Translations under genes and position numbers: made by a program
Assembly: GCA_945876945.1 (NCBI GenBank)
Contig: CAMCQE010000003.1
Coordinates: 5,446-69,445 of the forward strand
Length of the DNA: 64,000 nt
Direction of reading: 5' to 3'
Origin: Klebsiella pneumoniae
Lineage (GTDB): Bacteria; Pseudomonadota; Gammaproteobacteria; Ga0077536
Notes under the pieces: generated by a model
Told to the model about the DNA's origin: nothing
The model's database searches: none
What the model saw: only the letters and a program-made list of their open reading frames with translations
Part shown: positions 18,819-46,497 of the stretch, piece after piece
How positions within the stretch are numbered: the stretch's first letter is position 1
How the letters are laid out: each line of letters begins with the position of its first letter

Positions 18819-18865
18819 GAGGGATAGGGTCCTGTCTTTAAGGACTGGGCAACGGGGTGTATGGC

Positions 18866-21010: not shown

Positions 21011-21072
21011 CGCGGGGCTGCTTTCCTGAAATAAATGGACCGCTGAGGGGCTCTCACGCGATAAGATGGGCA

Positions 21073-23307
21073 ATGGCTGAAAATAAGCATGCTGTCTCAT
21101 TGAGTTTGTTGCCCGCTGTTTGGCGTACCCGGATTGAAGCCCTGTTGCGGCCTGAAGAATCCGTGCGCGCCTGCTTCGAAACCGACCTCACCCCAGACCT
21201 CCGCTACGCAGACGGACTGGCCGTGCTAACCACTATCCGCATCCTTCATTTAACGCAGGATGAACAGACTCGGGAGTGGGGCTTGGTTGACGCGCTGATG
21301 CTGCGCCAGACGGACTACGCGGGCGTCGGTCAGTTAGACATTGTTCTGGGCGAAAAGCGCCTTGATTTGTTGCGCTTTACGCTGGCTCGCGCGGTCGCTG
21401 CCACGCATTTCGTGTCCGAACTCACCCGACTCCGTGCCGACGGTGCTGAGGAACCTGAACCCGTAGCGTTGTGCCCCGAGTGCCATAGCCCGCTCGATCC
21501 CGCCTCTGGCCTGTGCGCGGTATGTGCCCGCGAACTTGCCGCTCCCCCTTCGTCCCGAACACTGCTCAGACTCTGGCGCTTTGCGCGGCCCTACCGTCTG
21601 CAACTGTTCGGTGGTTTCTTTTTTATGTTGATGGCGACGTTCGCCACGCTGGTGCCGCCCTATCTGACCATGCCCTTGATGGACGAGGTGCTGATTCCTT
21701 TTCAGAACGGGACGCCCATCGACGTCAACAAAGTGATTCTATATCTGGGCGGACTGCTTTGCGCAGCATTGCTGGCCTGGGTTTTGGGGTGGGCCAAGAC
21801 TTTCTTGTTGGCCCTGGTGTCTGAGCGCATTGGGTCGGACCTGCGCACCACGACCTTCAATCATCTGCTCGGCCTGTCGCTCGAATACTTCGGCGGCAAG
21901 CGCACGGGCGACCTGATCAGCCGACTGGGTTCAGAATCCGACCGCATCTGTCTGTTCCTGTCCCTGCATGCGCTGGAGTTCCTGACCGACGTGCTGGTCA
22001 TCATCATGACCGCGGTAATTCTGTTCACGATTAACCCCTGGCTCGCGCTGGCCACGCTTCTGCCCTTGCCCATCATCGGCTGGATGATTCATGTGGTCCG
22101 CGACCGGCTACGCACGGGTTTCGACAAGCTCATGCGGGTGTGGTCCGAAGTGACCAATGTGTTGTCGGACACCATCCCCGGCATTCGGGTGGTCAAGGCC
22201 TTCGCGCAGGAAGACCGTGAGAGCAAGCGGTTTCTGGCGGCCAACCAGTACAACCTCGCGCTCAACGATCGACTCAATAAACTCTGGGGCCTGTTCTCGC
22301 CCACGGTGACCTTGCTGACGGAAGTTGGCCTGCTGGTGGTGTGGGCCTTTGGCATCTCCCAGATTGCCCGCCACGAGATTACGGTAGGGGTGCTTACGGC
22401 CTTTCTGGCCTACATCGGGCGCTTCTATACCCGCCTTGATTCCATGAGCCGCATCGTGGCGCATACCCAGAAAGCCGCCGCCGCCGCCAAACGCATCTTC
22501 GATGTGCTGGACCATGTCTCTTCCGTGCCGGAACCCCGCAACCCGGTTAGCCTGCCGGCGGTCACCGGTCGCATCTCGTTAAAGAACGTCGGCTTTCGGT
22601 ATGGCAACCGGCAGGTGCTGCGCGACGTGAGTCTGGAAATCGCCCCCGGCGAAATGATTGGTCTGGTGGGACAGAGCGGCTCGGGCAAGAGCACGATGGT
22701 GAATCTGATGTGCCGCTTCTACGACGTGGCCGAGGGCGAAATCCAGCTCGAGGGCGTGGATATTCGTAACCTCGAATTGCGCGCGTTCCGTCAGCACATC
22801 GGTTTGGTGCTGCAGGAGCCTTTCCTGTTTTTCGGGACCGTGGCCGACAACATCGCCTACGGCAAACCGGGCGCGACCCGCGATGAAATTGTCGCGGCCG
22901 CGCGGGCGGCACATGCCCACGATTTCATCCTGCGTTTGCCTCACGCCTACGATTCCATCGTGGGTGAGCGGGGGCAGGGGCTGTCCGGCGGCGAACGGCA
23001 GCGCATCTCGATTGCCCGCGCGCTGCTGATCGACCCGCGCATTCTCATCCTTGATGAGGCGACTTCCTCGGTGGATACGGAAACCGAAAAGGAAATCCAG
23101 AAGGCGCTGGAAAATCTGGTGCGAGGGCGCACCACCATCGCCGTTGCCCACCGGCTCTCTACCCTGCGTAAGGCCGATCGGCTGGTGGTGCTGGAGCGCG
23201 GGCGGGTGGTGGAGGTTGGCAACCACGACGCCTTGATTGAGAAGGACGGCGTCTACGCGCGGCTTTACGAAGCGCAGACGCGTCAGCAGGCGGAGGCCGA
23301 AGCATGA
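21073..23307 (+). CDS. ABC exporter (fused TMD-NBD) with N-terminal Zn-ribbon-containing extension; cyanophycin-locus associated
   Basis: Walker A GQSGSGKST, signature LSGGERQRISIARA, Walker B ILILDEATSSVD, and six TM helices. The ~160-aa N-terminal extension carries CPEC-X10-CAVC. Confidence 0.85.
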   Translation: MAENKHAVSLSLLPAVWRTRIEALLRPEESVRACFETDLTPDLRYADGLAVLTTIRILHLTQDEQTREWGLVDALMLRQTDYAGVGQLDIVLGEKRLDLLRFTLARAVAATHFVSELTRLRADGAEEPEPVALCPECHSPLDPASGLCAVCARELAAPPSSRTLLRLWRFARPYRLQLFGGFFFMLMATFATLVPPYLTMPLMDEVLIPFQNGTPIDVNKVILYLGGLLCAALLAWVLGWAKTFLLALVSERIGSDLRTTTFNHLLGLSLEYFGGKRTGDLISRLGSESDRICLFLSLHALEFLTDVLVIIMTAVILFTINPWLALATLLPLPIIGWMIHVVRDRLRTGFDKLMRVWSEVTNVLSDTIPGIRVVKAFAQEDRESKRFLAANQYNLALNDRLNKLWGLFSPTVTLLTEVGLLVVWAFGISQIARHEITVGVLTAFLAYIGRFYTRLDSMSRIVAHTQKAAAAAKRIFDVLDHVSSVPEPRNPVSLPAVTGRISLKNVGFRYGNRQVLRDVSLEIAPGEMIGLVGQSGSGKSTMVNLMCRFYDVAEGEIQLEGVDIRNLELRAFRQHIGLVLQEPFLFFGTVADNIAYGKPGATRDEIVAAARAAHAHDFILRLPHAYDSIVGERGQGLSGGERQRISIARALLIDPRILILDEATSSVDTETEKEIQKALENLVRGRTTIAVAHRLSTLRKADRLVVLERGRVVEVGNHDALIEKDGVYARLYEAQTRQQAEAEA

Positions 23308-23771
23308 CCGCAGCATTCAAACTCGAACGTACCGCCCGCGGTCGCCTCGTGTTGACGCTGGCCGATGGCACGACACACGAAGGGGTGCAGCCGGTGCGGG
23401 CTTTCCCGCTCAGCGCCCCCACCGAGTTCCTTGCGCTGGTATCAACGCTGGGGCGCGAACTGCTGGCCATTGACCATCTCGACGATGTGCCCGAACCCGC
23501 GCGCAGCCTGATACTTGAAGAACTCGCCCCGCGCGAGTTCATGCCGCGGATTCTCGCCATTGAGTCGGTGTCGACCTTTGCCACGCCCAGCGTGTGGGAA
23601 GTGCGGACCGACCGCGGCAAGACCAGCATGACGCTCAAAGCCGAAGAAGATATTCGCCGAATCGACCGTGGCCGGCTGCTCATTAACGACAGCCACGGCC
23701 TGCAGTTGATGATTGACGACCCGGCCGCGCTAGATGCGCGCAGCCGGCGTTTTCTGGAACGATTCCTCTAA
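23304..23771 (+). CDS. DUF1854-type small protein coupled to the ABC exporter
   Basis: 155 aa, with a 4-nt ATGA overlap with the ABC gene. The size and position match the small partner that, as I recall, protein-family annotation describes as cyanophycin-metabolism-associated. This was not verified by search. Confidence 0.65.
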   Translation: MTAAFKLERTARGRLVLTLADGTTHEGVQPVRAFPLSAPTEFLALVSTLGRELLAIDHLDDVPEPARSLILEELAPREFMPRILAIESVSTFATPSVWEVRTDRGKTSMTLKAEEDIRRIDRGRLLINDSHGLQLMIDDPAALDARSRRFLERFL

Positions 23772-24655: not shown

Positions 24656-24781
24656 GGGCGTCTCCTTGAAGCGCGGTTTACGGGCCAGCAGTCTGGCACG
24701 CCGTATGTTTGGTTTTCATCCTCAGACCGTATGATGAAAGGGAAGCAACAATTCGGCTAATCGCCCACCCCGCTTGAGACC

Positions 24782-26749
24782 ATGACTGCAGGCCCCACAC
24801 CTCCTTCTTCCCGTGCGCCAGTAGATCCCGGTGCCATTCAGGCTTCGGCCGCGCGGCGTCTGCTGGAGCAAGGTCGCTTGCAGGAAGCGGCCACGCTGCT
24901 GGCTGAAGTCGCGCGCACAGGCCTGTCCTCGCCGGCCCTTCTGCATGCCGAAGGCGCCTTGGCGCTGGCCAACGGCGATCTCGCGCTGGCCGCAGCGCGT
25001 TTGCAGGCCTCGCTCGAAGGCTTCGATGCGAACAGCGAAGCGCATTACCAACTCGGTCGAGTGCTCAAAGAGTCCGGTCAGTTGCCGGCAGCCATGCAGC
25101 ATTACGACCGCGCCATCGCACTCGCGCCGGACTTCTGGCAGGCACATAGCAGCCGTGGCATCGTCGCGCGGACGCTGGGGCTTGCGAGTGAGGCGGTGAA
25201 ATGTCAGGAAAAAGTGCTGGCACTGCGCCCCAACGAGCCCAGCGCGCATCTCAACTTTGCTAACGCCTTGTTGATCGCCAACCAACCCGACCGGGCGTTG
25301 ACGGCTTACGAAGAGGTCTTGCGGCTGCGGCCCGGCGAAGCCAACGCTGAACGCGGGCGCGTGTTTGCTGAAGCCAAATCCTTGCTGTTCAAGCGCGAAT
25401 TTGCGGCCGCGCTGAGTGCACATCAGCAGGCGATCACGCTCGAATCCTACTCGCCCGCGGTGTTAATCGGGCTCGGCATTTGTCTGCTCCGCGATGGCCA
25501 GGCCGAAGCCGCAGAAGCGCGCTTCGCGCAGGCGCGCGCGCTGGGCGGGGTCGACGCGGCGCAGTGCTGGTCGCTGGGCCATCAGATGCTTCATTTCGGC
25601 CGTCAGTGTCGGGACGCTCGCTACTGGTATGAGCGGGCGCTGATGCAATGTAGCGCCGAGCCGCCGACCAGAATTTTGCGCGACTACGCGCTGGCGCTGA
25701 TTTATCTGGATGAAATGGCGCTCGCCGAGCGAGTGATCAATGACGTGCTGGCGCGCGATCCTGAAGATGCTCACGCGGGATTCTTCCTTGGCCTGATCCA
25801 ACTCTGGCGCGATGACTATCCGAGCGGGTTTCGACATTACGAGCATCGTTTCCTGGCCGTCCACGCCAGCGAGTTCCTGCCCGCCGGGCGTCCACTCACC
25901 GGCGCCAAACCCTGGGCGGGGGAAGATTTGGCCGGTCAACATTTCTTTTTATGGGCCGAGCAGGGCGCAGGAGACGCCCTGCAGTTCCTGCGCTATTTGC
26001 CAGTGCTGCGGGCGCGAGGCGCCCCGGCCAGACTGGACTTTGTGCTGCACGACGACCTGGTGGGCCTCGCGCGGGCCAGTTTTCCGGAGATGACGATTCT
26101 GGGTGGCTCCGACGACATCCTCGACGGGCAGCCGGATTACGAAACGCCCCTCATGAGCCTCCCGCATTTGCTTGGCACGCCGGAAGACACTCAGCCGGTC
26201 CCTATTCCCTACCTCCACGCCACGCCAGAACGCATCACGAGTTGGCGAGCCCGCCTCGGCCCTGCGGAGCGCTTGCGGGTAGGACTGGTGTGGGCGGGCA
26301 ATCCCGACCATTTCCGGGATCCGCAGCGCTCTCTGCCGCTCGGTCTGATGGCCGGTTTGAACGACCCCCGAGTCGAATTCATCGCCTTGCAGAAAGGGCC
26401 GGCTGAAGCGCAGATGGAGTCGCTACCGGATTTTCCAATCCGCCGGATTGCGCAGGATTTTGGCGACTTCCACGACACCGCCGCGGCAGTCACCTTGCTC
26501 GATCTCGTGATTACCGTAGACACCTCGATCGCGCACCTTGCCGGCGGGCTCGGGGTGCCGGTGTGGATTCTGCTCTCGCAGCTGGGCGAGTGGCGGTGGG
26601 GCCGCGATCGCGAGCACTGCCGCTGGTATCCCTCGGCGCGCCTGTTCCGGCAAACCGAGGAAGACCAGTGGGCGCCGGTGCTAGCGCGCGTGCGCGAAGC
26701 CTTGCAGGCCTTACTGGCGAGCCGCGAAGCCTCAATCGTTGATGGCTGA
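24782..26749 (+). CDS. TPR-repeat protein fused to GT9-like (heptosyltransferase-fold) glycosyltransferase domain, paralogue 1
   Basis: N-terminal TPR-like repeats (AHYQLGRVLK.., YDRAIALAPDFWQAHSSRG). The C-terminal region has VGLVWAGNP.., DFHDTAAAVTLLDLVITVDTSIAHLAGGLGVPVWILL, resembling the GT9 donor-binding motif (NDSGxMHLAAALGxP). Confidence 0.7.
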   Translation: MTAGPTPPSSRAPVDPGAIQASAARRLLEQGRLQEAATLLAEVARTGLSSPALLHAEGALALANGDLALAAARLQASLEGFDANSEAHYQLGRVLKESGQLPAAMQHYDRAIALAPDFWQAHSSRGIVARTLGLASEAVKCQEKVLALRPNEPSAHLNFANALLIANQPDRALTAYEEVLRLRPGEANAERGRVFAEAKSLLFKREFAAALSAHQQAITLESYSPAVLIGLGICLLRDGQAEAAEARFAQARALGGVDAAQCWSLGHQMLHFGRQCRDARYWYERALMQCSAEPPTRILRDYALALIYLDEMALAERVINDVLARDPEDAHAGFFLGLIQLWRDDYPSGFRHYEHRFLAVHASEFLPAGRPLTGAKPWAGEDLAGQHFFLWAEQGAGDALQFLRYLPVLRARGAPARLDFVLHDDLVGLARASFPEMTILGGSDDILDGQPDYETPLMSLPHLLGTPEDTQPVPIPYLHATPERITSWRARLGPAERLRVGLVWAGNPDHFRDPQRSLPLGLMAGLNDPRVEFIALQKGPAEAQMESLPDFPIRRIAQDFGDFHDTAAAVTLLDLVITVDTSIAHLAGGLGVPVWILLSQLGEWRWGRDREHCRWYPSARLFRQTEEDQWAPVLARVREALQALLASREASIVDG

Positions 26750-28661
26750 CGCCGAGTACGCCGCCGCGCGGGCGCTGTTCGACAGCGGGCAGATACTCGC
26801 TACCGCCCAGAGGGTCGCTCGCTGGCAAGCCGATTCAGCGATGACGGCGTCGCGCTGGCATCTGGCCGGTATGGTCGCCATGGCCAGCGGCGATCTGCCT
26901 GTCGCAGAGCAGGCCCTGCGCGCTGCGTTGCTGGCGGCACCTGACAACGTTGAGGCGCACTATCAAATGGGCCGCCTGTTGAAAGACCTTGGCCGTGTGG
27001 CCGAGGCCATCGATTCCTATGACCGGGCTTTGGCTTATGTGCCCGATTACTGGCCGGCGCACAGCAGTCGGGGCACCGCCTGCCGCCTGCTGGGGCGCTA
27101 TCACGAGGCCCTCGCTTCGCAACGCACCCTCAGCAAGCTGCGGCCGACCGATCCGGCGGCCTGCTTGAATCTGGCGAACGCGCTGTTCAACGTGGGCCAA
27201 GCCGTCGCGGCCGCCGAGGCCTACGCTCGCACCCTGGCCCTGCGCCCGGGCGATCCGTCGGCCAGTCTTGGCCTCGCGCAGACCCGAGCTCGCGCGCTGC
27301 TGGAGGCCGAGGACTGGGAGGCCCTGCTGGCTCACGTTGCACAGACACCGGCGGCGCTGGACGTGCCGCCCTATTTGAGTCTGGCCGCCGCTCTCGCGCG
27401 CTACCGGCTTGGCCAACGGGACGCGGCGACCGAGCGGTTTCGCGAAGCGCTGACGCGCGCGCCCAGCGATCCCCACCAGTGTTGGGCGCTGGGCGATTTG
27501 TTGGCACGAACCGGCCGCTGCTGGGACGAAGCGATCCCCTGGTACGAGCGCGCCATTGTGCTCAGCGGCGCTGAGGCCACGGTCGAGTTCCATAATTCGT
27601 TGGTGGCTGCGCGCTATTTCAGCGGCGATTTGCCGGGCGCCGAAGACGCTTGCGAGCGGGCGTTGGCAATCAATCCCGAGGCGCCTGAGGTGCACTTCAA
27701 CCGCGGTGTGATTCTGCTGTGGCAGGACCGTTATGCCGAAGGCTTTGCGGCCTACGAGCGCCGCTTCGAGGCCATGCGATCACCCACCCTCCCCGACTCG
27801 CCGATCGGTCGCCCGCCGCTTGGGGTGCAAGCCTGGCAGGGTGAGGACTTGCAGGGGAAAACGCTGGTGCTGTGGCCGGAGCAGGGCATTGGCGACGCTT
27901 TGCAGTTTCTGCGCTACCTGCCGGTGCTCTGCACCCGCACGGCACCGGCCAATTTAAAAGTAGCGGTGCCGCTTTCCCTCCAGACGCTGGTACAGGCTAG
28001 TTTTCCCGGCCTGAACGTGGTGAATGTGGAGACGCTGGCGCAGGCCGGCGGGCCCGTCGCGGATTTCGACGCGCCGTTGATGAGTCTGCCTCATCTTCTG
28101 GGCACACCTGAGGACACCCAGCGCAGCGCTGTGCCGTATCTCACGCCTTCGCCCGCGCAGCTTGCGCGCTGGCAAGCGCGGCTTGGCGCCCGCCAGCGTT
28201 TGCGGGTGGGACTGGTGTGGGCGGGCAATCCGCAGCACCTGCGGGATTTCGAACGGTCGATTCCGCTGCGCGTGCTGGCCACGCTGGCCAGTCCCCGGAT
28301 CGAATTCCACGCCTTGCAAAAAGGTCACGGCGAAGCGCAGCTGGATGAGCTGCCCGACTTCGCGCTCCAGCGCACTGGCGCGGCCTGTGCGGATTTTCAC
28401 GACACCGCCGCGGCCTTAAGCCAACTCGATCTGCTCATTACGGTGGATACCTCGGTCGCGCATCTGGCCGGCGCGATGGGCGTGCCCACCTGGCTTTTGT
28501 TGCACGCCTATGGCGAATGGCGCTGGGGCGTGAGTCGGGCCGAGTGCCGCTGGTACCCGAGCGTCCGCTTTTTTCGGCAAACCGTGCCGGGCGAATGGGG
28601 TGAAGTAATCGAGCGCGTGCGGCACGCGCTGTTGGCGCACGCGGCGGGTAATGAGCGATGA
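26742..28661 (+). CDS. TPR + GT9-like glycosyltransferase, paralogue 2
   Basis: Colinear with paralogue 1 (AHYQMGRLLK, YDRALAYVPDYWPAHSSRG, VGLVWAGNPQHLRD, ITVDTSVAHLAGAMGVPTWLLL). The ATG at 26742 overlaps the stop of paralogue 1 (ATGGCTGA). Confidence 0.7.
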   Translation: MADAEYAAARALFDSGQILATAQRVARWQADSAMTASRWHLAGMVAMASGDLPVAEQALRAALLAAPDNVEAHYQMGRLLKDLGRVAEAIDSYDRALAYVPDYWPAHSSRGTACRLLGRYHEALASQRTLSKLRPTDPAACLNLANALFNVGQAVAAAEAYARTLALRPGDPSASLGLAQTRARALLEAEDWEALLAHVAQTPAALDVPPYLSLAAALARYRLGQRDAATERFREALTRAPSDPHQCWALGDLLARTGRCWDEAIPWYERAIVLSGAEATVEFHNSLVAARYFSGDLPGAEDACERALAINPEAPEVHFNRGVILLWQDRYAEGFAAYERRFEAMRSPTLPDSPIGRPPLGVQAWQGEDLQGKTLVLWPEQGIGDALQFLRYLPVLCTRTAPANLKVAVPLSLQTLVQASFPGLNVVNVETLAQAGGPVADFDAPLMSLPHLLGTPEDTQRSAVPYLTPSPAQLARWQARLGARQRLRVGLVWAGNPQHLRDFERSIPLRVLATLASPRIEFHALQKGHGEAQLDELPDFALQRTGAACADFHDTAAALSQLDLLITVDTSVAHLAGAMGVPTWLLLHAYGEWRWGVSRAECRWYPSVRFFRQTVPGEWGEVIERVRHALLAHAAGNER

Positions 28662-30574
28662 GCGATGGCCTGAGAGAGCAGGTCGCAGGCTTGCTGGCGC
28701 AAGGGCAAGTGCCCGCTGCACGCGATGCCTTGGCGCAGTGGCGCGCGCAACGGCCCACCTCGGCCGAATCCCTGCACGCCGAGGCCATGCTCGCGATCGC
28801 CGAAGGCCAGCTGCCGCTGGCCGCTGAACGTTTGGAGCAATCGCTGGCGGCCGAGCCGCACAACCCGCAGGCGCATTACCAGTTGGGTCGACTGCTGAAA
28901 GACGCCGGACATCCCGCCGAGGCCTTGGCCTGCTACGACCGCGCAATCGCGCTGGCGCCCGATTTCTGGCAAGCCCATAGCAGTCGCGGCATCGCGGCCC
29001 GTCAGCTGGGGCTCACCACGGAAGCCATTGCGTCCCAGCAGCGCGTGACCGCCTTGCGCCCGCAGGATCCGGCGGCGCAGCTCAATCTCGCCAATGCGCT
29101 GTTGACCGGCAACCGACTTGAGGAATCCGCGGCGGCCTATGCCAAGGCCTTGCAACTCCGCCCGGACGATCCGGCGGCACAGCGTGGATTGCGGGCGACG
29201 AAAGCATTGGGACTGCTGGCGGCGCGCCGCTGGGCCGAGGCACTGGCCGCTTTTGATGAGGCGATGACCCACGAACCGGCGTCGCCCACCATGCTGGTCG
29301 GCGCCGGCGCCGCCTTGCGCAGGCTGGGCTTTGAGGCGCAGGCGGCAGCGCGGTTTGCGCAAGCCGAGGCGCTTACGGTCACTGATGCCGCGACCTGTTG
29401 GATGATCGGCGAGTTTCTGATTGCCGTTGGCGCTTGCGGGCCGCAGGCCAAATGCTGGGTGGATCGCGCCGCGGCGCTGTTAGGGGACACGGCGGGTCCC
29501 GACGTGTACGCCGCCCGTGCCAGCACGAGGGTCAATCTGGGCGAGTTTGCCGAGGCCGACGGCTTGCTGACGCAGGCGCTGGCGGCTTTCCCTGAAGCCG
29601 CCCACCTCCAATGGGTCCAGGCCCTGTCGCGCTTGTGGCAAGACGACTACCGCACCGGGTTTCAGGGCTTCGAGACCCGCTTTGAAGTGGTGTACGCCAA
29701 CGGCTCGGCGGGCAGCAACGGACGCTTGCCGCTGGCGGCGCGGCGCTGGACGGGTGAACCCTTGGCCGGGCGCCACCTCATCGTCTGGGCGGAACAGGGG
29801 CTGGGCGACACCCTGCAGTTCATCCGTTTCCTGCCCGCGCTCATGGTCGCCCATCCGGCGGCGCGGCTAACGGTCCTGGTGCAGGACGCGCTGGTTTCGC
29901 TGCTGAAAGCGAGTTTTCCTCATGACGAGATCTGCGCGCTGTCTACGCTACGCGCCGGCACCCAGGCCGATTTCGAAGTGGCGCTCATGAGCCTGCCGCA
30001 TGTGCTGGGAATGGCGGAGCAGACGCAGCCGTTGCCGTTCCCGTATCTGTTTCCTGCGCCGGCAAAAATCGCCGAGTGGCGCCAGCGTCTTGGTCCGCGG
30101 CAGCGTCTGCGCGCCGGGCTGGTCTGGGCCGGCAACCCCGCGCATCTGCGGGACGCCGAGCGCTCCATTCCTCTGCGCTGTCTGGCGCAATTGGACCACC
30201 CGGACATCGAGTTCCATGCCCTGCAAAAAGCGCACGGTGAGGAGCAGATGGAGGCACTGCCGGCGTTCCCGCTGAGGCGGACTGCGGCGGGCTTCGCCGA
30301 TTTCCACGACACCGCCGCCGCCTTGAGCCAGCTCGATGTGGTCATTACCGTTGATACCTCGGTCGCCCATTTGGCCGGTGCGATGGGCCTTCCCACCTGG
30401 TTGCTGCTGCATGCGCAGGGGGAATGGCGCTGGGGAATGTCGCGTGAGATCTGTCGCTGGTATCCGTCGCTGCGCTTTTTCCGACAGTCTTTGGCCGGGG
30501 ACTGGACTGAGGTCATGGCGCGGGTGGATGTCGCGTTGCGGGAACTGCTCAACCAGTTTACTGTCGAGCCATAA
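28658..30574 (+). CDS. TPR + GT9-like glycosyltransferase, paralogue 3
   Basis: Colinear with paralogues 1 and 2 (YDRAIALAPDFWQAHSSRG, AGLVWAGNPAHLRD, ITVDTSVAHLAGAMGLPTWLLL). ATGA start/stop overlap with paralogue 2. Confidence 0.7.
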   Translation: MSDGLREQVAGLLAQGQVPAARDALAQWRAQRPTSAESLHAEAMLAIAEGQLPLAAERLEQSLAAEPHNPQAHYQLGRLLKDAGHPAEALACYDRAIALAPDFWQAHSSRGIAARQLGLTTEAIASQQRVTALRPQDPAAQLNLANALLTGNRLEESAAAYAKALQLRPDDPAAQRGLRATKALGLLAARRWAEALAAFDEAMTHEPASPTMLVGAGAALRRLGFEAQAAARFAQAEALTVTDAATCWMIGEFLIAVGACGPQAKCWVDRAAALLGDTAGPDVYAARASTRVNLGEFAEADGLLTQALAAFPEAAHLQWVQALSRLWQDDYRTGFQGFETRFEVVYANGSAGSNGRLPLAARRWTGEPLAGRHLIVWAEQGLGDTLQFIRFLPALMVAHPAARLTVLVQDALVSLLKASFPHDEICALSTLRAGTQADFEVALMSLPHVLGMAEQTQPLPFPYLFPAPAKIAEWRQRLGPRQRLRAGLVWAGNPAHLRDAERSIPLRCLAQLDHPDIEFHALQKAHGEEQMEALPAFPLRRTAAGFADFHDTAAALSQLDVVITVDTSVAHLAGAMGLPTWLLLHAQGEWRWGMSREICRWYPSLRFFRQSLAGDWTEVMARVDVALRELLNQFTVEP

Positions 30575-30594
30575 GCTGTTCCAGAAAGGAGCCG

Positions 30595-31956
30595 ATGTTG
30601 CTCCCCCGTGTGTCGAGTCCCTTGCTCGCTGCGACTTTCAGCCTGTTGCTCGGCGCGTGCGCCAGTGTGCCGAAAGGTCGTGGCGTGCCCGAGGTGCGCG
30701 CGCTGACGGCGGCGCGGGGCGCTGAAGTGCCGGTGGCCGAGCAGGTTTCGACGCTGGCGCAACAGGCACTTGCCAAGCCGCTTACCCTGCAGCGCGCGGT
30801 GCAGCTGGCCTTACTCAAGAATCCGCAGGTGCAAACCGAGTTCGCCCGGCTGGGGCTGGCGGCGGCCGATGTCTACGACGCCGGACGCCTCGCCAATCCC
30901 CAGTTCTCGACGGCGGTGATGACCACCGACGCCGCGGGCGGGGTCAATCAGGTGACTTTCGGCATCGGCCAACGAATCAGCGATCTGCTGCTGCTTCCGG
31001 CCCGGCGGCGGCTGGCGAGCGGGGAGTTTGAACGGACGCAGGCCGATGCCGCGCAGGCTATCGTGAATCTCGCTGCCGACGTCGAAGCCGCCTGGTATGC
31101 CGTGCGCGGGGCGGAAGAAATCGCGACGCTGCGAGCCGAACAGGCGCGGGCCGCCACTACGGCGGCGGCACTGTCGCAGCGGCTGTTTGAGGCGGGCAAT
31201 GTGAGCGCCCGCGACCTTGCGCAAGCGCAGGCCGAGGCCAGCGGCGAACAACTCACCGCAGAGGCGCTGGCCAGCGAACTGAAACAGGCGCGGACCCAAC
31301 TGATCTGGCTGATGGGGCTTGGGCCGGAACAGGCGAGCTGGCATACCGAGGGCGATATCGCGCTGCCGGAAGCCGCCGCCCCCGACATCGCTGCGCTCGA
31401 AACCGAAGCCCTCGAAAAACGCCTCGATCTGGCGTCCCGCCGCCGTGCGGTGGCCTTGCTGGAGGACGGGCTGCAGGAAGCGCATCGCTGGCGCTATCTG
31501 GGGGAGGTGTCGGTGGGGGTTGAGACCGAGCGTCAAACCGACCGCTCACGCCTTACCGGCCCGAACCTCGCGATTGAATTACCGGTTTTTAATCACGGCG
31601 ACGGCAAGCTGGCCCGGGCCGAGTCGCAGTTGGCGCTGGCGCAAAGCAGTGTGCGGTCGCTGGAGCTGGAAGTGCGGCGCGACGTGCGTGCTGCCGCCGA
31701 GCGCGTAATCTCCGCCCAGCAACGCGGCAAGGCGCTCGCCGACACCCTGATCCCGGCGCGCGAAGCGGTCTACGCCCGGATAAAGGAAGAGGTGAATTAC
31801 ATGCTGCAAAGCCCGTTTGAATTGATTCGCGCCCGCCAGCAGTGGCTGGAAGCCAGGCAGCAGCAGCTTGAGGCTGCGCGCGATTACTGGTTGGCGCGGG
31901 CATCGCTGTCGCGCGCCCTTGGCGCGCGCCAAGCCGCGCCGGAGACCGCGCCATGA
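30595..31956 (+). CDS. TolC-family outer-membrane efflux lipoprotein
   Basis: Lipobox LLLGAC at the N-terminus; two coiled-coil/OEP-type repeats; 453 aa. AAAGGAG lies 5 nt before the ATG, only 20 nt after the third TPR-GT gene. Confidence 0.75.
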   Translation: MLLPRVSSPLLAATFSLLLGACASVPKGRGVPEVRALTAARGAEVPVAEQVSTLAQQALAKPLTLQRAVQLALLKNPQVQTEFARLGLAAADVYDAGRLANPQFSTAVMTTDAAGGVNQVTFGIGQRISDLLLLPARRRLASGEFERTQADAAQAIVNLAADVEAAWYAVRGAEEIATLRAEQARAATTAAALSQRLFEAGNVSARDLAQAQAEASGEQLTAEALASELKQARTQLIWLMGLGPEQASWHTEGDIALPEAAAPDIAALETEALEKRLDLASRRRAVALLEDGLQEAHRWRYLGEVSVGVETERQTDRSRLTGPNLAIELPVFNHGDGKLARAESQLALAQSSVRSLELEVRRDVRAAAERVISAQQRGKALADTLIPAREAVYARIKEEVNYMLQSPFELIRARQQWLEARQQQLEAARDYWLARASLSRALGARQAAPETAP

Positions 31957-33239
31957 TTTCCCGCCGCGATCTGCTCTCGCTGGGCGCGCTCGGCGGGGCG
32001 GTGGGCTTGTTGGTGCCCGATGCTTCAGGCGCCATAGACGCGGCGACCAGAAGCCGACATCCCTATCGCCCAGTTCATACGCTCAACGGCTGGACGCTGC
32101 CCTATCGTTTGCGCGACGGGGTGAAGGAGTTTCATCTTCTCGCCGAAGAGTTCGAGCATGAATTCGCCCCGGGCTCCCGCGCCAAATGCTGGGGCTATAA
32201 CGGCGGCACGCCGGGGCCCACCATCGAGGCGGTGGAAGGCGACCGCGTACGCATTCTGGTGACCAATCACCTGCCCGAGGCCACCTCTGTGCATTGGCAT
32301 GGCCTGCGTTTGCCGAGCGGCATGGATGGCGTGGCGGGCCTGTCTCATCCCGCCATCGCGCCCGGCGAAACCTTTGCCTATGAGTTCACGCTGCAGGATG
32401 CCGGCTCTCACTTCTATCACCCGCATGCGGACGAAGTGGTGCAGTTGAGCTTTGGCCTGATGGGACTGTTCATCATTCATCCGCGCGACGGCGAGTTGCG
32501 GCGAATTGACCGCGACTACTGTCTGTTGCTCGCCAACTGGGCCCTGCACCCCGGCACCTGGCGACCCGACCCGTCCGTGATGACCGATTTCAATCTCTGG
32601 ACCATGAACAGCAAGGTGTTTCCCGCCATTGCACCGATGGTGGCGCGCACCGGCGAGCGGGTGCGGATTCGTATTGCCAATCTTTCGATGCACGAGCACC
32701 CGGTGCATCTGCACGGCGTGCGCTTTCAGGTGACCGGCGGCGACGGCGGGCGCTGGCCGGAAACGCAGTGGTTAAACGAAGTGACCACGCTGGTGGGGGT
32801 GGGGCAGGTGCGCGACATCGAATTCGAGGCCATCGCCGGCGACTGGGCTTTTCACTGCCACAAAGGCCATCACACCATGAACGCAATGGGCCACGGCATT
32901 CCCAATTTTGTCGGGGCCAATTTGAAGGGGTTGGGCAAGGAACTCCGGGCCGCGCTGCCCGGCTATATGCCGATGGGCGAGACCGGCATGGCAGAACACA
33001 GCAAGCATGTGAACATGGGCATGATGAAAGGTCCGCCCAACACGGCGCCGATGATGGGCGGTGAGGGGCCATTTGGCCCGCTCAATATGGGCGGGATGTT
33101 TACCGTCCTGAAGGTGCGCGACGATCTCGCGGCGGACGATTATCGCGACCCGGGTTGGTATCCCCATCCGGCTGGAACCGTTGCCAAGCGGGTGAGCAGT
33201 GACCCGGATTTCGGTCAACCGCCACGGCGCCCGGCGTAA
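31953..33239 (+). CDS. Multicopper oxidase with Tat signal and Met-rich segment
   Basis: Tat motif SRRDLLSLGA. Copper ligand motifs HWHG, HPHA, HPVHLHG, HCHKGHH. Met-rich stretch MPMGETGMAEHSKHVNMGMMKGPPNTAPMMGG. 4-nt overlap with the TolC-like gene. Confidence 0.8.
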   Translation: MISRRDLLSLGALGGAVGLLVPDASGAIDAATRSRHPYRPVHTLNGWTLPYRLRDGVKEFHLLAEEFEHEFAPGSRAKCWGYNGGTPGPTIEAVEGDRVRILVTNHLPEATSVHWHGLRLPSGMDGVAGLSHPAIAPGETFAYEFTLQDAGSHFYHPHADEVVQLSFGLMGLFIIHPRDGELRRIDRDYCLLLANWALHPGTWRPDPSVMTDFNLWTMNSKVFPAIAPMVARTGERVRIRIANLSMHEHPVHLHGVRFQVTGGDGGRWPETQWLNEVTTLVGVGQVRDIEFEAIAGDWAFHCHKGHHTMNAMGHGIPNFVGANLKGLGKELRAALPGYMPMGETGMAEHSKHVNMGMMKGPPNTAPMMGGEGPFGPLNMGGMFTVLKVRDDLAADDYRDPGWYPHPAGTVAKRVSSDPDFGQPPRRPA

Positions 33240-33300
33240 GTATTTTCATCGCACGCTTGTCACTAAAAAAAATCGCTTAAGCCTCTATACTCCGCGCCGA

Positions 33301-33318
33301 GCGTGCCCCGAGGCACGC
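33301..33318 (+). other. 7-bp GC-rich hairpin (GCGTGCC-CCGA-GGCACGC) in the 130-nt spacer between the MCO and decarboxylase genes
   Basis: Hand-indexed perfect inverted repeat with no following U-tract. It could be an operon-end hairpin or part of the decarboxylase leader. Confidence 0.3.
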
Positions 33319-33369
33319 ACCAACCCTTCATGCCGGCCCGTGCCAGCCCTCCGTCTTACAGGAGCTCCA

Positions 33370-35724
33370 ATGGAATATTCGCGTCGCTTCAAGTTCCTCG
33401 TTTGCGCCCGTAATTTTGAGGGCGATTCCGACCTCGAAGGCGCGCGCCTGAGTCAGATTATTCAGGAGATCGAGCAGGACGGTTATCAGGTGTTGAGAGC
33501 GCGGCGTGATGACGACGCCGAACTGGTGGTGCGCACCGACGCCGCCATCGGCTGCCTGATCGTGGACTGGGGCCGCAAAGGGCTGCAGGGCAAGGCGGCG
33601 CAGCTGATTTCGCTTACCCGCAAACGGGGCCTCGATGTGCCCGTGATCGTGCTGGTGCGCGGTCGCCATCGTCTGGAAGACATCCCGGTGGAAGTGCTCG
33701 ACGACGTCGACGGCTTCATGTTCCTCGCCGAAGAAACGCCGGACTTTATCGCCAAGAATCTGGTCTCGCGCCTGCGGCAATACGCGGAGAGCCTGAAAAC
33801 GCCGTTCTTTGGTGCGCTGGTGGACTATGCGGAGCAGGGCAATATGCTCTGGACCTGCCCGGGTCATAACGGCGGCGTGTTCTATCGACGCAGCCCGATT
33901 GGCCGCATTTTCGTCGAGCATCTGGGCGAAGCGGTGTTTCGCGACGACCTCGATAACTCCGTGCTGCAACTGGGCGACCTGCTCACCCACGAGGGCCCGG
34001 CCGAGCGCGCCGAGCGCGAAGCAGCCACCATCTTCGGTGCCGAGCGCACCTACTTCGTGTTGAACGGCACCTCAACCTCGAACAAGGTGGTGCTGTCGGC
34101 GCTGTTGGCCGAAGGCGATCTGGTGCTGTTCGACCGCAACAACCACAAGGCCGCGCACCACGGGGCTTTATTTCTGGGCGGCGCGGTGCCGGTGTTTGTC
34201 GAGACCGAACGCAACGCCTACGGCTTGATTGGCCCAATGCGCCTCGAGGCGATGGACGAGGAGCGCCTGCGCGAATCGATCCGCGCCAACCCGTGGGTGA
34301 CGGATAAATCGCTGGCCGATCGGCCGCGGCCCTTCCGTGCGGCGGTGGTGGAGCAATGCACCTACGACGGCACCATCTACTCGGCGGAAGAAGTCATTCG
34401 TCGCATCGGTCATTTGTGCGACTACATTCTGTTCGACGAAGCCTGGGCCGGCTTCATGAAATTCCACCCGCTGTTCCGCGGCCGCTTCGGCATGGGCCTG
34501 GGCGATCTGGGCCCGGATAGCCCCGGCATCATCGTCACCCAAAGCACGCATAAGCAGCTGGCCTCGTTCAGTCAGGCCTCCCAGATTCACATCAAGGATT
34601 CGCATCTCGGCGAACAACGTCGTCGGGTGGAGCATCGCCGCTTCAACGAGTTCTTCTTGCTCCACGCCTCGACCAGTCCGTTCTATCCGCTGTTCGCGAG
34701 TCTCGATGTGGGCGCGCAGATGATGAAGGGACGCTCCGGCGAAGTGCTGTGGGACGACACCGTGCGCCTCGGCATTGAGCTGCGCAAAATGATCCGTGCG
34801 ACACATCAGGAGTTCGTGCAGAAAGAAAGCGACCCGGTGCGCCAGTGGTTCTTCGATGTTTTTGTGCCGGATATCGTCGAAGTGCCGGGCCGCAACGGCG
34901 CGATGACGCGGGTGGCCTGGGAAGAAGTGCCGACCGATCTGCTGGCCTCAGATCCCTCGCTGTGGGAGCTGCGCCCGGGCGCGGACTGGCACGGATTCAA
35001 GCACGTGGCGCCGGGTTGGGCGATGACCGACCCCAATAAGCTCATTGTGCTCACGCCCGGCTTTGATACCCAGGGCCGTTATTCCGAGCAAGGCGTGCCG
35101 GCACCGGTGGTCGCTGAATATCTGCGCCAGAATCGAATCGTGTGCGAGAAGAACGATCTCAACTCGCTGCTGTTCTTGCTCACGCCCGGTGTGGAGAGCA
35201 GCAAGGCGGGCACCTTGCTATCGCATCTGGTGACCTTCAAGAAACTCTACGACGACAACGCGCTGCTGGACGACGTCATTCCGGACTTCGTGGCCCGTCG
35301 CCCACAGCGCTACGCCGGCTTGCGGCTGCGTGATCTCTGCGACGAAATGCACGCGCTGTATCGCGATGCGAATGTGAGCGCGCTACAGGGCGCCCAATTC
35401 CGCGCCGAGCATCTGCCCGAAATGGTCATCCTGCCCAGCGTGGCGGTGAAAGAACTGGTGCGCAACAACGTGGACTATCTGCCGCTCGACGAAGTGGAAG
35501 GCCGCATTGCCACCACGCTGTGGGTGGTCTATCCGCCAGGCATCGCCACCATTGTGCCCGGCGAGCGGCTGACGGAGCGTTCGCGCCCGATGGTCGATTA
35601 CCTGCGCACTTTTGAGCGCGCCGCCAATCGCTTCCCGGGCTTCGAGACCGAAGTGCAGGGCTTGCACCGCGAAGTTCAGCCTGACGGTACCGTGCGCTTC
35701 TACACCTATGTGGTGAAAGCATAA
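33370..35724 (+). CDS. Large PLP-dependent Orn/Lys/Arg decarboxylase (wing domain + OKR_DC_1 fold)
   Basis: 785 aa from the ATG at 33370 (AGGAG 6 nt upstream). PLP-lysine motif TQSTHKQLASFSQAS. The N-terminal receiver-like wing is typical of AdiA/LdcC-type enzymes. Substrate cannot be assigned. Confidence 0.85.
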   Translation: MEYSRRFKFLVCARNFEGDSDLEGARLSQIIQEIEQDGYQVLRARRDDDAELVVRTDAAIGCLIVDWGRKGLQGKAAQLISLTRKRGLDVPVIVLVRGRHRLEDIPVEVLDDVDGFMFLAEETPDFIAKNLVSRLRQYAESLKTPFFGALVDYAEQGNMLWTCPGHNGGVFYRRSPIGRIFVEHLGEAVFRDDLDNSVLQLGDLLTHEGPAERAEREAATIFGAERTYFVLNGTSTSNKVVLSALLAEGDLVLFDRNNHKAAHHGALFLGGAVPVFVETERNAYGLIGPMRLEAMDEERLRESIRANPWVTDKSLADRPRPFRAAVVEQCTYDGTIYSAEEVIRRIGHLCDYILFDEAWAGFMKFHPLFRGRFGMGLGDLGPDSPGIIVTQSTHKQLASFSQASQIHIKDSHLGEQRRRVEHRRFNEFFLLHASTSPFYPLFASLDVGAQMMKGRSGEVLWDDTVRLGIELRKMIRATHQEFVQKESDPVRQWFFDVFVPDIVEVPGRNGAMTRVAWEEVPTDLLASDPSLWELRPGADWHGFKHVAPGWAMTDPNKLIVLTPGFDTQGRYSEQGVPAPVVAEYLRQNRIVCEKNDLNSLLFLLTPGVESSKAGTLLSHLVTFKKLYDDNALLDDVIPDFVARRPQRYAGLRLRDLCDEMHALYRDANVSALQGAQFRAEHLPEMVILPSVAVKELVRNNVDYLPLDEVEGRIATTLWVVYPPGIATIVPGERLTERSRPMVDYLRTFERAANRFPGFETEVQGLHREVQPDGTVRFYTYVVKA

Positions 35725-37949: not shown

Positions 37950-39782
<1,833 letters not shown>

Positions 39783-39861
39783 ATCTAAATCCTGTGTTCG
39801 AGTTGGAGAGTGCGGGGCAGACGGTTAGGCTGGAGGGGATTGTAACCACGGAGGCGGCGCG

Positions 39862-40179
39862 ATGAACAAAAGACCAGCCACACTGCTGGCGGAGATGCCC
39901 GATGGGGTGTTTGGTCATGCGGCGCTGCTCGAAATCGTGGAGAACCAGCTCCGCGACCGCAATCCGCCAGAGACGGCGCTCACGCTGTCCCGCCTGAGCG
40001 CTGAAGGGTTCTCCCGCGACGACGCGGTGCATCTCATTGCCTGCGTGGTGTCGGTGGAGATCTTCGAGGTCATTCACGCCAAGCAGACTTTTGACCCCGA
40101 GCGCTTTGCGGAGAATCTGGCGGCGCTGCCGGAGCTCCCCTACGACCCTTACGCCATGGCGAGCGAGATGGTTCCCTGA
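39862..40179 (+). CDS. Hypothetical protein, 105 aa
   Basis: ORF with an ATG start. Its TGA stop shares a nucleotide with the ATG of the next gene (TGATG). No family recognised. Confidence 0.5.
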   Translation: MNKRPATLLAEMPDGVFGHAALLEIVENQLRDRNPPETALTLSRLSAEGFSRDDAVHLIACVVSVEIFEVIHAKQTFDPERFAENLAALPELPYDPYAMASEMVP

Positions 40180-42203: not shown

Positions 42204-42216
42204 GGACGCGAACCCC

Positions 42217-42567
42217 ATGAGTATCAGTCCCCCCAATCTGTTTACCTGCGTGAGCCAGTATCTGAAATCGCCCGACGAGATCGCGCCGCATATTCCGGCC
42301 CATATCGAATGGCTGGGCGAACTGGATGCCGCCGGCAAACTCGTGACCTCCGGACGACAGGTGCCGCCCGCCGGCGGCGTGATCGTGATGGCGGGTGACA
42401 GCCGCGAGGCCGTGCAGGCGCTGCTGGCCACCGATCCCTTTGCGCTGCATGGCTGCGCCGCTTACTGGATCTTCGAGTTCGAGCTTAATCCCGAGCCTGT
42501 TCGCGGGCGGCTGATGGATTACTTCGTTAGCGACGCCTTTACCGCGCAAAACCGCGAGCACGACTGA
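42217..42567 (+). CDS. YciI-family protein
   Basis: 116 aa; H..WL....G.L..SG pattern (HIEWLGELDAAGKLVTSGR) and DPF motif (LLATDPFALHG). Confidence 0.7.
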   Translation: MSISPPNLFTCVSQYLKSPDEIAPHIPAHIEWLGELDAAGKLVTSGRQVPPAGGVIVMAGDSREAVQALLATDPFALHGCAAYWIFEFELNPEPVRGRLMDYFVSDAFTAQNREHD

Positions 42568-42612
42568 GCGCTTTGCCCGCCAATGAAGGATTCAAACCAC
42601 AAGGAGCCGTTG

Positions 42613-43848: not shown

Positions 43849-43860
43849 AGCGGCGGCCGC

Positions 43861-44274
43861 TTAGTCGAAGTAAAACTGGTTCAGCCGCCAGCCATCGGTT
43901 TTACGCCGGTAGGTGAGCATGATCTGGCGCTCGCCGCCCGCGCAGCTCAGCACAAAATGCAGCCGGTAAAACGATGACGCGAAGCGCTCTGCATCGCTCA
44001 GGCTTGCGCGCTGGCACGCGCCCAGCGGGGCGAGGTGCGCGGGAAGTTCGCGCTCGGCCCAGTCGAGATTGCGCTGCACCTTGGGATCATCAAGATGGGA
44101 TTCGGCGCGCGCGGTGGTGAGTGCGGCGACCGCGCCCTCAGTGCGCAGTTGGGCGATCAGCGCCAGCGCGCCTTCGCGGATTTGCTCGTGCGTGCGGTAG
44201 GGCACCTCGGCGGCGTTTGCGCTACCGCCGAGCGCGGACAGCAAAGCCAAGGCGACACCCGCGATGCGCTTCAC
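43861..44274 (-). CDS. Hypothetical secreted protein
   Basis: Signal-peptide-like VKRIAGVALALLSALGGSANA from the GTG at 44274. The track ATG at 44316 would overlap the upstream cupin gene. Confidence 0.5.
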   Translation of the reverse strand: MKRIAGVALALLSALGGSANAAEVPYRTHEQIREGALALIAQLRTEGAVAALTTARAESHLDDPKVQRNLDWAERELPAHLAPLGACQRASLSDAERFASSFYRLHFVLSCAGGERQIMLTYRRKTDGWRLNQFYFD

Positions 44275-44281
44275 GCCACCC

Positions 44282-46443: not shown

Positions 46444-46497
46444 TGGGGCTCAGTAATCAGCGTCTAAAAAAGAACAACACAGGGAGAGGGAGCCCGC

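Follow-up and report, generated by a model that had tools for sequence, protein, structure and literature searches.

What might a bacterium do with three consecutive, overlapping genes, each of which joins a long series of tetratricopeptide repeats (TPRs) to a glycosyltransferase-like domain? The question is raised by a stretch of 64,000 nucleotides (hereafter the window) from contig CAMCQE010000003.1 (positions 5,446 to 69,445, forward strand) of GenBank assembly GCA_945876945.1, named Klebsiella pneumoniae and assigned by GTDB to the gammaproteobacterial lineage Ga0077536. A preliminary description, made from the letters of the window, had read the genes (copies 1, 2 and 3, together the trio) as fusions of TPRs to a domain resembling glycosyltransferase family 9 (GT9), had compared them with the TPR-containing glycosyltransferases OGT (family GT41) and Caulobacter FlmG, which act on proteins, and had proposed a protein-glycosylation system with three specificities. 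By modelling the fold, mapping catalytic residues, and comparing the trio with FlmG, with a very large family of relatives and with the neighbourhoods of those relatives, we arrive at a reading that we hold to be, on balance, probable: the trio proteins are catalytically competent cytoplasmic glycosyltransferases guided by their TPRs, they belong to a FlmG-related family in which TPRs are joined to a divergent GT9 domain, and their acceptor is most likely a protein.

Three overlapping paralogous genes

The three genes encode proteins of 655, 639 and 638 amino acids (aa) that align colinearly from end to end, and in pairwise BLASTP comparisons they are 45.1-50.2% identical over 622-630 residues (E <= 1.9e-170), which bears out the earlier account of three colinear tandem paralogues of about 640 aa. 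The six sequence blocks that this account listed as shared are all present; only the last needs correction, as copy 2 reads GVSRAECRWYPS there, giving RAEC where RE.C had been written. A profile hidden Markov model (HMM) of the family's C-terminal domain (CTD), run against all six reading frames of the window, detects exactly three copies at E values of 1e-105 to 1e-112 (1.4e-105 for copy 1, 5e-107 for copy 2 and 2.7e-112 for copy 3) and no fourth. One open reading frame (ORF) with TPRs, at 53198-54958, had been suspected as a fourth copy and was rejected, being without the family CTD. Its product, a TPR protein of 586 aa whose N-terminus resembles a signal peptide, is unrelated to the trio, and a Sulfotransfer_4 gene lies nearby at 59153-59971.

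Both junctions are overlaps, ATGGCTGA between copies 1 and 2 and ATGA between copies 2 and 3, exactly where the preliminary description had placed them. A scan of a genome collection returned a single related contig, an 8-kb fragment of a metagenome-assembled genome (MAG) of an uncultured 'Gammaproteobacteria bacterium', which is colinear with window positions 25702-33766 at 91.7% identity and in which both overlaps are kept. The ORF lister places the start of copy 2 at a TTG at 26739; because the MAG contig has CTG at this site, copy 2 is likely to begin with the ATG at 26742. The overlaps, of 8 nt and 4 nt, lead us to infer that the three genes are expressed as one translationally coupled unit. 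Its promoter region (Table 1) is presumed solely from the divergent arrangement of the preceding gene, and a simple promoter scan found no sigma-70 consensus before copy 1 (0 promoters, with terminators at chance rate). At the second junction the ATGA overlap is produced by a 7-nt tandem repeat, two successive units of ATGAGCG (28651-28664), which the MAG contig also keeps.

A TPR superhelix joined to a GT9-like domain

In all three copies the N-terminal half matches many Pfam TPR families. The full-length AlphaFold2 (AF2) model of copy 3, for which 49 homologues were used (predicted local distance difference test, pLDDT, 93; predicted template modelling score, pTM, 0.86), consists of the TPR helices and a two-lobed alpha/beta domain, joined by a short linker of low confidence. 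Because TPR proteins dominated the Foldseek search with this model (OGT and SPY on top, at template modelling (TM) scores of 0.2-0.35 only), the CTD was modelled alone (pLDDT 91.9, pTM 0.91) and searched separately. Its best matches in the PDB are WaaF (1psw; E 2.7e-9, TM 0.62) and a Veillonella GT9 protein (3tov; TM 0.67), and the leading matches, all of them GT9 enzymes (1psw, 3tov, 6dfe, 2h1h, 2gt1 and 4rap), also include WaaC and TibC (4rap; E about 1e-5); the first GT41 structure, that of SPY, appears at rank 49 (E 3.7e-3). Sequence searches of the PDB matched solely the TPRs of OGT, of SPY and of designed TPR proteins when the full protein was used, and nothing when the CTD was used alone.

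Profile comparisons were made with the Escherichia coli enzymes WaaC, WaaF, WaaQ and WaaU. By hhalign, the family CTD aligns with this set at 96.6% probability (E 6.6e-10, 244 columns), and the plain family HMM matches all four GT9 proteins via their C-terminal signature, leaves WaaG (GT4) below its inclusion threshold, and does not report WaaA (GT30). No NCBIfam model scored above its threshold, heptosyltransferase I reaching 14-23 bits against a cut-off of 185. On these models and profiles the CTD is a GT-B domain of about 280 aa that is GT9-like rather than GT41-like, and Pfam, AF2, Foldseek and hhalign agree here with what had been supposed from the letters. No signal peptide and no transmembrane or hydrophobic segment was found in any of the three copies, which indicates that the proteins are cytoplasmic.

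Residues of the donor and acceptor sides

The key residues of the heptosyltransferase WaaC are D13, K192, E222, D261 and H266, and the signature of these enzymes is D(T/S)(A/G)XXH, of which the D,D-heptosyltransferase WahD carries the variant D(T/S)(S/A)XXH (PMC3559599). In the profile alignment of WaaC with copy 3, D13 falls on D384 (in the EQGLGD loop), E222 on E528, D261 on D566, and H266 on H571. The equivalents of these four residues are invariant in all three copies, where the signature reads D-T-S-V/I-A-H, and neither of the two family alignments, of 49 and 46 sequences, shows any variation at the positions of D384, D566 and H571. The preliminary description had been prepared to give way if the CTD lacked a GT-B fold or catalytic residues; both are present.

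On the other side of the active site, WaaC (HepI) binds its Kdo2-lipid A acceptor through R60, R63, K64 and R120 (bioRxiv 10.1101/2021.06.16.448588). None of these has a basic counterpart in the trio: R60 and K64 fall in gaps, R63 aligns with T430, and R120 with P458, in a loop alignment that is soft, and 53 of the 165 N-lobe residues of WaaC are missing from the trio CTD. To judge from the aligned residues, the donor side looks like that of a working heptosyltransferase, and the acceptor side unlike that of a lipopolysaccharide (LPS) enzyme.

Relationship to FlmG

Caulobacter crescentus FlmG is a protein of 596 aa (TPRs 1-313, GT-B domain 309-596) that is necessary and sufficient for the O-glycosylation of flagellin with pseudaminic acid (Pse); its TPRs bind flagellin, and its GT-B domain sets the donor specificity for Pse or legionaminic acid (Leg) (PMC7591256; bioRxiv 10.1101/2022.03.25.485807). 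The FlmG class has been described in the literature as confined to Caulobacterales, and the glycosyltransferase family of FlmG is named in no paper that a literature search found. For comparison, FlmG peptides were obtained by translating an eLife primer table (residues 1-6, MSRKSA; 301-316, FQIPGVRWSGQDLRGK; 494-500, AKEELGV; C-terminus, RDFAAS). A protein-database search with these peptides gave nothing at E <= 10, and a metagenome scan with a degenerate DNA pattern for 16 residues gave no match; the same kind of scan with a pattern for a 9-residue core (DNA encoding WSGQDLxGK) recovered several 596-aa proteins with the W at residue 308, two of which carry MSRKSA, FQIPGVR and AKEELGV. A 599-aa protein sits between an FlbT-FlaF-flagellin-FlaG set (three flagellins in total) and a GNAT (FlmH-like) gene, and because this neighbourhood is that of the Caulobacter flm locus its orthology to FlmG is confirmed. 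FlmG orthologues were found on six metagenomic Caulobacter-type contigs.

The likeness of the trio to FlmG, which the preliminary description had drawn by analogy of architecture, proves to be true homology. In BLASTP the FlmG orthologue matches copy 2 at 31.8% identity over 469 aa (E 7e-38), copy 3 at E 1e-30 and copy 1 at E 8e-24, covering both TPRs and CTD; the family CTD HMM detects FlmG orthologues at E 1e-43 to 1e-48; and hhalign aligns the FlmG CTD with the family CTD at 99.9% probability (E 8.5e-38). The CTD of FlmG aligns directly with classical GT9 at 27% probability only, and Pfam GT9 does not detect FlmG. Since the family reaches GT9 at 96.6% and FlmG reaches the family at 99.9%, the family is the link between the two, and FlmG is, by these profiles, a divergent branch of a large TPR + GT9-like family.

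Both FlmG and the trio proteins carry N-terminal TPRs and a C-terminal GT-B domain in one cytoplasmic polypeptide, and they share W.G.DL.GK, EQGLGD with the catalytic Asp, LQ.G, D..D.AA,.LAGA and PWYPS.R.F. CTD identity is nevertheless 29-33% only, and the trio is not orthologous to FlmG. In place of D566 and H571 of the trio, FlmG has S and N (S-N-A-x-x-N against D-T-S-x-x-H), and in place of R502 and K524 it has Q and Y; its CTD also has two insertions relative to the trio. These replacements are consistent with a sugar pocket of FlmG that has been remodelled for a CMP-nonulosonate donor, and with a trio that keeps a pocket of the heptosyltransferase type. FlmG, moreover, is a single-copy gene that adjoins flagellins, flaF, flbT and flmH, whereas the trio is a tandem array with no flagellar context in the window.

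It is accordingly very unlikely, in our judgement, that the trio transfers pseudaminic or legionaminic acid to several flagellins as FlmG does. Homology to FlmG over both domains speaks for such a role, as do the relatives that lie near flagellar genes in Rhodocyclaceae and Rhodoplanes; the four pocket replacements and the lack of orthology speak against it, the literature confines the FlmG class to Caulobacterales, and no flagellar or nonulosonate-synthesis gene is present among the annotated ORFs of the 64-kb window (the annotation covers all but a few of the ORFs that reach 220 aa).

A large family with many multi-copy members

The trio belongs to what NCBI names 'tetratricopeptide repeat-containing glycosyltransferase family protein'. 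Typical members have 500-540 aa, made up of TPRs and the CTD, whereas the trio proteins reach about 640 aa owing to extra TPRs and form a clade of their own. The family motifs W.GE.L.G, EQGLGD, RSIP, DFxDTAA, VDTSVAHLAGA and WYP are all present in the trio CTDs. A word-indexed search with the CTD gave more than 5,300 matches, the best non-orthologues being under 50% identical (at most 49% among the members listed), and a HMMER scan of 1.84 billion cluster representatives gave 38,755 matches at E <= 1e-3, each of them a cluster at 50% identity, and 16,371 at E <= 1e-30. A literature search for the family name or for 'TPR glycosyltransferase' returned nothing relevant. The trio proteins are ordinary members of a very large, database-named and experimentally almost untouched family.

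Many relatives carry several such units in one polypeptide. Among the 150 top-scoring representatives, in a ranking by summed score that favours multi-module proteins, 105 have three CTD modules, 24 have four, 7 have five and one has six. The modules are spaced at a median of 516 aa with TPRs between them, which corresponds to one TPR + CTD per unit, and the polypeptides are 1,200-3,100 aa long, with 3-6 TPR + GT9-like modules each. A Zoogloea protein (WP_374490222.1) has 2,855 aa and 5 modules, and one of Citrifermentans bemidjiense (WP_012532177.1) has 1,450 aa and 3 modules; the cluster of the latter also contains, from Geobacter sp. M21, proteins of 688 and 760 aa that look like a split form. 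Tandem pairs of family genes occur in a Rhodocyclaceae genome, on a metagenomic contig and in Burkholderia ambifaria, and Azospirillum replicons carry up to 10 family copies. A tandem, coupled trio is typical of the family, in which multi-copy arrangements are common, and the significance first attached to a triplicated array was overstated, since tandem copies and multi-module fusions are widespread.

Selection and divergence within the trio

The phylogeny that had been suggested as a check was built: a neighbour-joining analysis of 46 CTDs recovers the trio as a clade in 100 of 100 bootstraps. CTD identity is 56-61% within the trio and at most 46% to the multi-module proteins listed, and nucleotide identity within the trio is 54-57%. 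By these measures the trio is an independent, lineage-specific but old expansion by tandem duplication. In base composition, the trio together with the following TolC-like gene (window 26001-32000) has a G+C content of 0.67-0.68, against 0.62-0.63 in the flanks; this rise may reflect the Ala/Arg/Leu-rich composition of the TPRs or a foreign origin of the block, and a syntenic relative is without the trio.

Against their orthologues on the MAG contig, the ratios of nonsynonymous to synonymous substitution rates (dN/dS) are 0.07 for copy 1 (aa 308-655, the part present on the contig), 0.20 for copy 2 and 0.17 for copy 3, and all three copies are gap-free and without frameshifts. The ratios mark the trio as maintained genes under purifying selection, not decaying duplicates. 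They bear on whether the proteins might be pseudo-glycosyltransferases, that is, catalytically dead TPR scaffolds: the Pfam GT9 score stays below threshold, and the Foldseek matches include chloroplast NDH subunits that use a GT9-like fold non-catalytically (9grx, 7wff). Since neither the catalytic base nor the sugar signature varies among the three copies or within an alignment of 46 family members, since purifying selection is strong, and since the donor lobe is the most conserved part, we find a dead scaffold scarcely credible.

Divergence is uneven along the proteins, identity between copies rising from 36-44% in the TPRs through 44-55% in the N-lobe to 60-75% in the donor C-lobe. This pattern, a conserved donor lobe beside diverged TPRs and N-lobe, fits copies that share a donor but have diverged in how they recognise acceptors, and in this sense the 'three specificities' of the preliminary description would agree with it; it would agree equally well with three modules acting on one substrate.

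The latter could take the form of a single cooperating machine, a hetero-oligomer or assembly line that modifies many sites of a single substrate or assembles a short glycan step by step. Coupled translation favours synthesis of the three proteins in stoichiometric amounts, and the fused relatives with 3-6 modules, together with the apparent split form in Geobacter sp. M21, point in the same direction; WaaC, WaaF and WaaQ are a precedent for sequential addition of heptose. The force of the fusions is lessened by the summed-score ranking, which enriches multi-module proteins, by the family members of the word search, most of which are single-module proteins of 500-540 aa, and by the CTD identities, according to which the duplication of the trio is independent of the fusions. 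We regard one machine as possible but doubtful.

Genomic context of the window

The features of the trio, of its immediate neighbours and of informative relatives are collected in Table 1.

Table 1. Coordinates of the trio, its parts and its neighbours in the window, followed by loci of family members in other genomes.
Feature	Position	Strand	Basis or content
Presumed promoter region of the array, 126-nt intergenic, between the divergent luciferase-like oxidoreductase gene and copy 1	24656-24781	+	
Copy 1, 655-aa TPR + GT9-like glycosyltransferase paralogue	24782-26749	+	ORF map, Pfam, family HMM
Copy 1 TPR domain, aa 1-363	24782-25870	+	Pfam TPR families, alignment to modelled copy 3
Copy 1 GT-B (GT9-like) catalytic domain, aa 374-655	25901-26746	+	Profile alignment, residue map
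Copy 1 EQGAGD (WaaC D13 motif)	25958-25975	+	
Copy 1 DTSIAH (WaaC D261..H266 signature)	26519-26536	+	
8-nt overlap ATGGCTGA, copy 2 start codon over copy 1 stop codon	26742-26749	+	Sequence
Copy 2, 639-aa paralogue (from ATG)	26742-28661	+	ORF map, Pfam, family HMM
Copy 2 TPR domain, aa 1-350	26742-27791	+	Pfam, alignment
Copy 2 GT9-like catalytic domain, aa 361-639	27822-28658	+	Profile alignment, residue map
Copy 2 EQGIGD	27879-27896	+	
Copy 2 DTSVAH	28446-28463	+	
4-nt overlap ATGA, copy 3 start codon over copy 2 stop codon	28658-28661	+	Sequence
Copy 3, 638-aa paralogue, the copy modelled	28658-30574	+	ORF map, AF2, family HMM
Copy 3 TPR superhelix, aa 1-349, 21 helices, ~10 hairpins	28658-29704	+	AF2, Pfam TPR
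Copy 3 GT-B catalytic domain, aa 360-638	29735-30571	+	CTD model, Foldseek, hhalign
Copy 3 EQGLGD, holds D384 (WaaC D13)	29792-29809	+	
Copy 3 RSIPL	30161-30175	+	
Copy 3 DTSVAH, holds D566 and H571 (WaaC D261, H266)	30353-30370	+	
TolC-like outer-membrane efflux protein, neighbour outside the system	30595-31956	+	Pfam OEP
Multicopper oxidase, 428 aa, Tat-signal, Met-rich, neighbour outside the system	31953-33239	+	Pfam Cu-oxidase_3, Cu-oxidase_2
Ralstonia solanacearum megaplasmid	NZ_CP014703.1, 6429-14270		985-aa autotransporter, TPR-sulfotransferase fusion, 387-aa CTD-only family member, hydrolase, APS kinase
Burkholderia glumae			Two YadA-like adhesins + GT41-type gene beside family member
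Azospirillum lipoferum 4B p6 and Azospirillum sp. B510 pAB510f			Family member divergent from giant (>2,700-aa) calcium-binding protein
Rhodocyclaceae			Tandem family member beside flagellar export/motor genes fliOPQR, fliLMN
Duganella-type genomes			M28 peptidase gene overlaps TPR-glycosyltransferase gene start by 4 nt, several genomes

Downstream, the TolC-like gene begins 20 nt 3' of copy 3, behind an AAAGGAG Shine-Dalgarno sequence and with no terminator between, and is probably co-transcribed with the trio; it overlaps the multicopper oxidase gene by ATGA. Homologues of the oxidase that are 67-78% identical are widespread in Proteobacteria, and in the relative with the 78%-identical one the order oxidase-decarboxylase-amidohydrolase is kept, with phytochelatin synthase-like and GGT genes in place of the trio. 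In another genome the OEP-oxidase pair lies in a cus-type copper cluster. A functional link between the trio and the pair, which the 20-nt spacing and the conservation in the MAG contig had suggested, was rejected because the syntenic relative has no TPR-glycosyltransferase genes and the pair is found elsewhere in that cus-type cluster; from its distribution, the pair is an independent copper-resistance module.

The genes that precede the trio are the divergent luciferase-like oxidoreductase gene, an ABC exporter gene accompanied by a DUF1854 gene, and two cyanophycin-synthetase-like genes. The last two are in tandem at 16239-21100 (-) with a 4-nt overlap, one encoding 876 aa with ATP-grasp and Mur-ligase domains, the other 744 aa with the N-terminal and ATP-grasp domains only. 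The exporter (21073-23771, +) has an N-terminal extension of ~170 aa with CxxC...CxxC and is followed by the overlapping DUF1854 gene; a 28-nt overlap between its annotated start and the divergent cyanophycin synthetase ORF makes it probable that one of these starts has been placed too far upstream. Elsewhere the window holds transporters, oxidoreductases, Baeyer-Villiger-type monooxygenases, a P450 and acyl-CoA enzymes. In particular, flavin monooxygenases (FMO; Baeyer-Villiger/FMO-like), cytochrome P450 and a molybdopterin oxidoreductase at 37950-48123 suggest a hydrocarbon- or ketone-oxidising lifestyle.

Neighbourhoods of relatives

A search for conserved neighbours, also suggested at the outset, was rewarded in part: several relatives lie beside surface, secreted or flagellar genes (Table 1), and many other neighbourhoods say little. 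The Ralstonia locus, whose ORFs were annotated by Pfam scan, is an apparent protein-modification cassette. In Azospirillum sp. B510, HlyD and ABC genes of type I secretion adjoin the family member and the giant protein, and in A. lipoferum 4B many sugar-modification genes are nearby. In Rhodoplanes a family member lies 7 kb from fliC/fliD/fliS. The M28 peptidase gene and the TPR-glycosyltransferase gene of Duganella-type genomes form a conserved coupled pair, the peptidase being a candidate partner or substrate.

Some of these loci lend themselves to another interpretation, in which the acceptor is not a protein (but, for example, a glycolipid, an exopolysaccharide or an intermediate of LPS or capsule) and the TPRs only dock the enzymes into a biosynthetic complex. 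The A. lipoferum homologue is found among genes for a GDP-mannose dehydratase, a methyltransferase, an aminotransferase and other glycosyltransferases, another relative has a GT2 gene and an acyltransferase gene nearby, and the matched GT9 enzymes other than TibC are LPS-core heptosyltransferases. We judge a non-protein acceptor unlikely, as FlmG, the sole characterised homologue, is a protein glycosyltransferase, the Kdo2-lipid A-binding residues and loops of WaaC are absent, the proteins have no membrane anchor, and no glycan-assembly, flippase or polymerase genes are present among the annotated ORFs of the window.

Proposed mode of action and its significance

In the reading that we favour, that of a TPR-guided transferase acting on protein, a superhelix of ~10 TPRs would capture the acceptor, as has been shown experimentally for FlmG, and would present it to the compact GT-B domain. 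There a sugar would pass from its nucleotide carrier to the acceptor by inverting chemistry of the GT9 type, and the putative general base would be the loop Asp of EQG(L/I/A)GD, which in copy 3 is D384. Because E528, D566 and H571 (D-T-S-x-A-H) are kept, a donor of the ADP-heptose type or another nucleoside diphosphate (NDP)-pyranose sugar would be more likely than the CMP-nonulosonate of FlmG. The three copies probably share a donor, or use similar ones, and differ in the acceptor, site or step that they serve; they may also work together, and the fused relatives with 3-6 modules suggest that three modules on one substrate are at least as likely as three unrelated targets. That the acceptor is a protein we infer from FlmG, from the fusion to TPRs, from the loss of the lipid A-binding residues of WaaC, and from the neighbourhoods of relatives.

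Several observations weigh against this reading. Pfam GT9 (PF01075) covers the C-terminal signature at sub-threshold scores (12.5, 17.1 and 18.8 bits against a cut-off of 22). The donor assignment is drawn, weakly, from four residues; the WaaC stretch 183-192, with K192, falls in an alignment gap, the same loop of the trio holding the invariant R502 of RSIPL, and at ~15% identity to WaaC the alignment is unreliable at the level of loops. FlmG is the only family member with biochemical or genetic data. Among relatives, many neighbourhoods are uninformative or point elsewhere, for example to the M28 peptidase or to sugar genes of polysaccharide type. In the window itself, the annotated ORFs of at least 220 aa include no flagellar, sugar-nucleotide or target gene, as the preliminary description had remarked of the nearby genes, and no flagellin-chaperone, nonulosonate-synthesis, adhesin or autotransporter gene.

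A more far-reaching version may be put forward as a conjecture, one that we would sooner expect to fail than to hold: the trio would be a non-flagellar, cytoplasmic protein-glycosylation system guided by TPRs, with a donor of the heptosyltransferase type such as ADP-heptose and three cooperating modules that correspond to those of the fused relatives, and the family as a whole would be a widely distributed counterpart, in bacteria, of the eukaryotic OGT that decorates secreted adhesins and other proteins, FlmG being an atypical offshoot that switched to CMP-nonulosonate donors.

Taken alone, the locus is a modest result, as it adds three proteins to an already very common family and offers no view of their target. 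Its wider value lies in FlmG, which has been described as a narrow class and appears here as a branch of a very large TPR + GT9-like family. If most members of this family are protein glycosyltransferases with donor sites of the heptosyltransferase type, cytoplasmic protein glycosylation addressed by TPRs would be a large and unexplored activity of bacteria. For experiments, the Ralstonia autotransporter cassette and the giant-adhesin loci of Azospirillum are better entry points than the window of the trio.

Comparison with known systems

Structurally, the trio CTD is matched best by the LPS-core enzymes WaaC (HepI), WaaF (HepII), WaaQ and WaaU (1psw, 3tov, 6dfe, 2h1h; E 2.7e-9 to 1e-5, TM 0.5-0.67). 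Profile homology extends across the whole domain, and the catalytic Asp, E222 and D(T/S)(S/A/G)XXH are common to both. The N-lobe of the trio, however, is ~50 residues shorter than that of WaaC and has none of the basic residues with which WaaC binds Kdo2-lipid A; and, unlike the LPS-core heptosyltransferases, the trio proteins are fused to long TPRs and their genes do not lie in an LPS-core cluster.

TibC and AAH, autotransporter heptosyltransferases of the BAHT family (PDB 4rap, 4rb4), are GT9-like GT-B enzymes that heptosylate proteins in the cytoplasm before export. TibC has no TPRs, forms a dodecameric ring, and ranks below WaaF and WaaC in structural similarity to the trio; the trio, for its part, lacks the Cys cluster of the iron finger of TibC/AAH, having just one invariant Cys in the CTD. 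No autotransporter gene lies beside the trio among the annotated ORFs of the window, while the Ralstonia family member sits directly downstream of an autotransporter gene, echoing the tibC-tibA arrangement.

From the GT41 enzymes (the O-GlcNAc and O-fucose transferases OGT and SPINDLY (SPY), HMW1C, and bacterial GT41 proteins) the trio differs in having no match to PF13844 and no intervening domain. Its TPRs nonetheless match those of OGT and SPY strongly, and the principle would be the same as in OGT and SPINDLY, where an N-terminal TPR superhelix picks protein substrates for a C-terminal GT-B domain.

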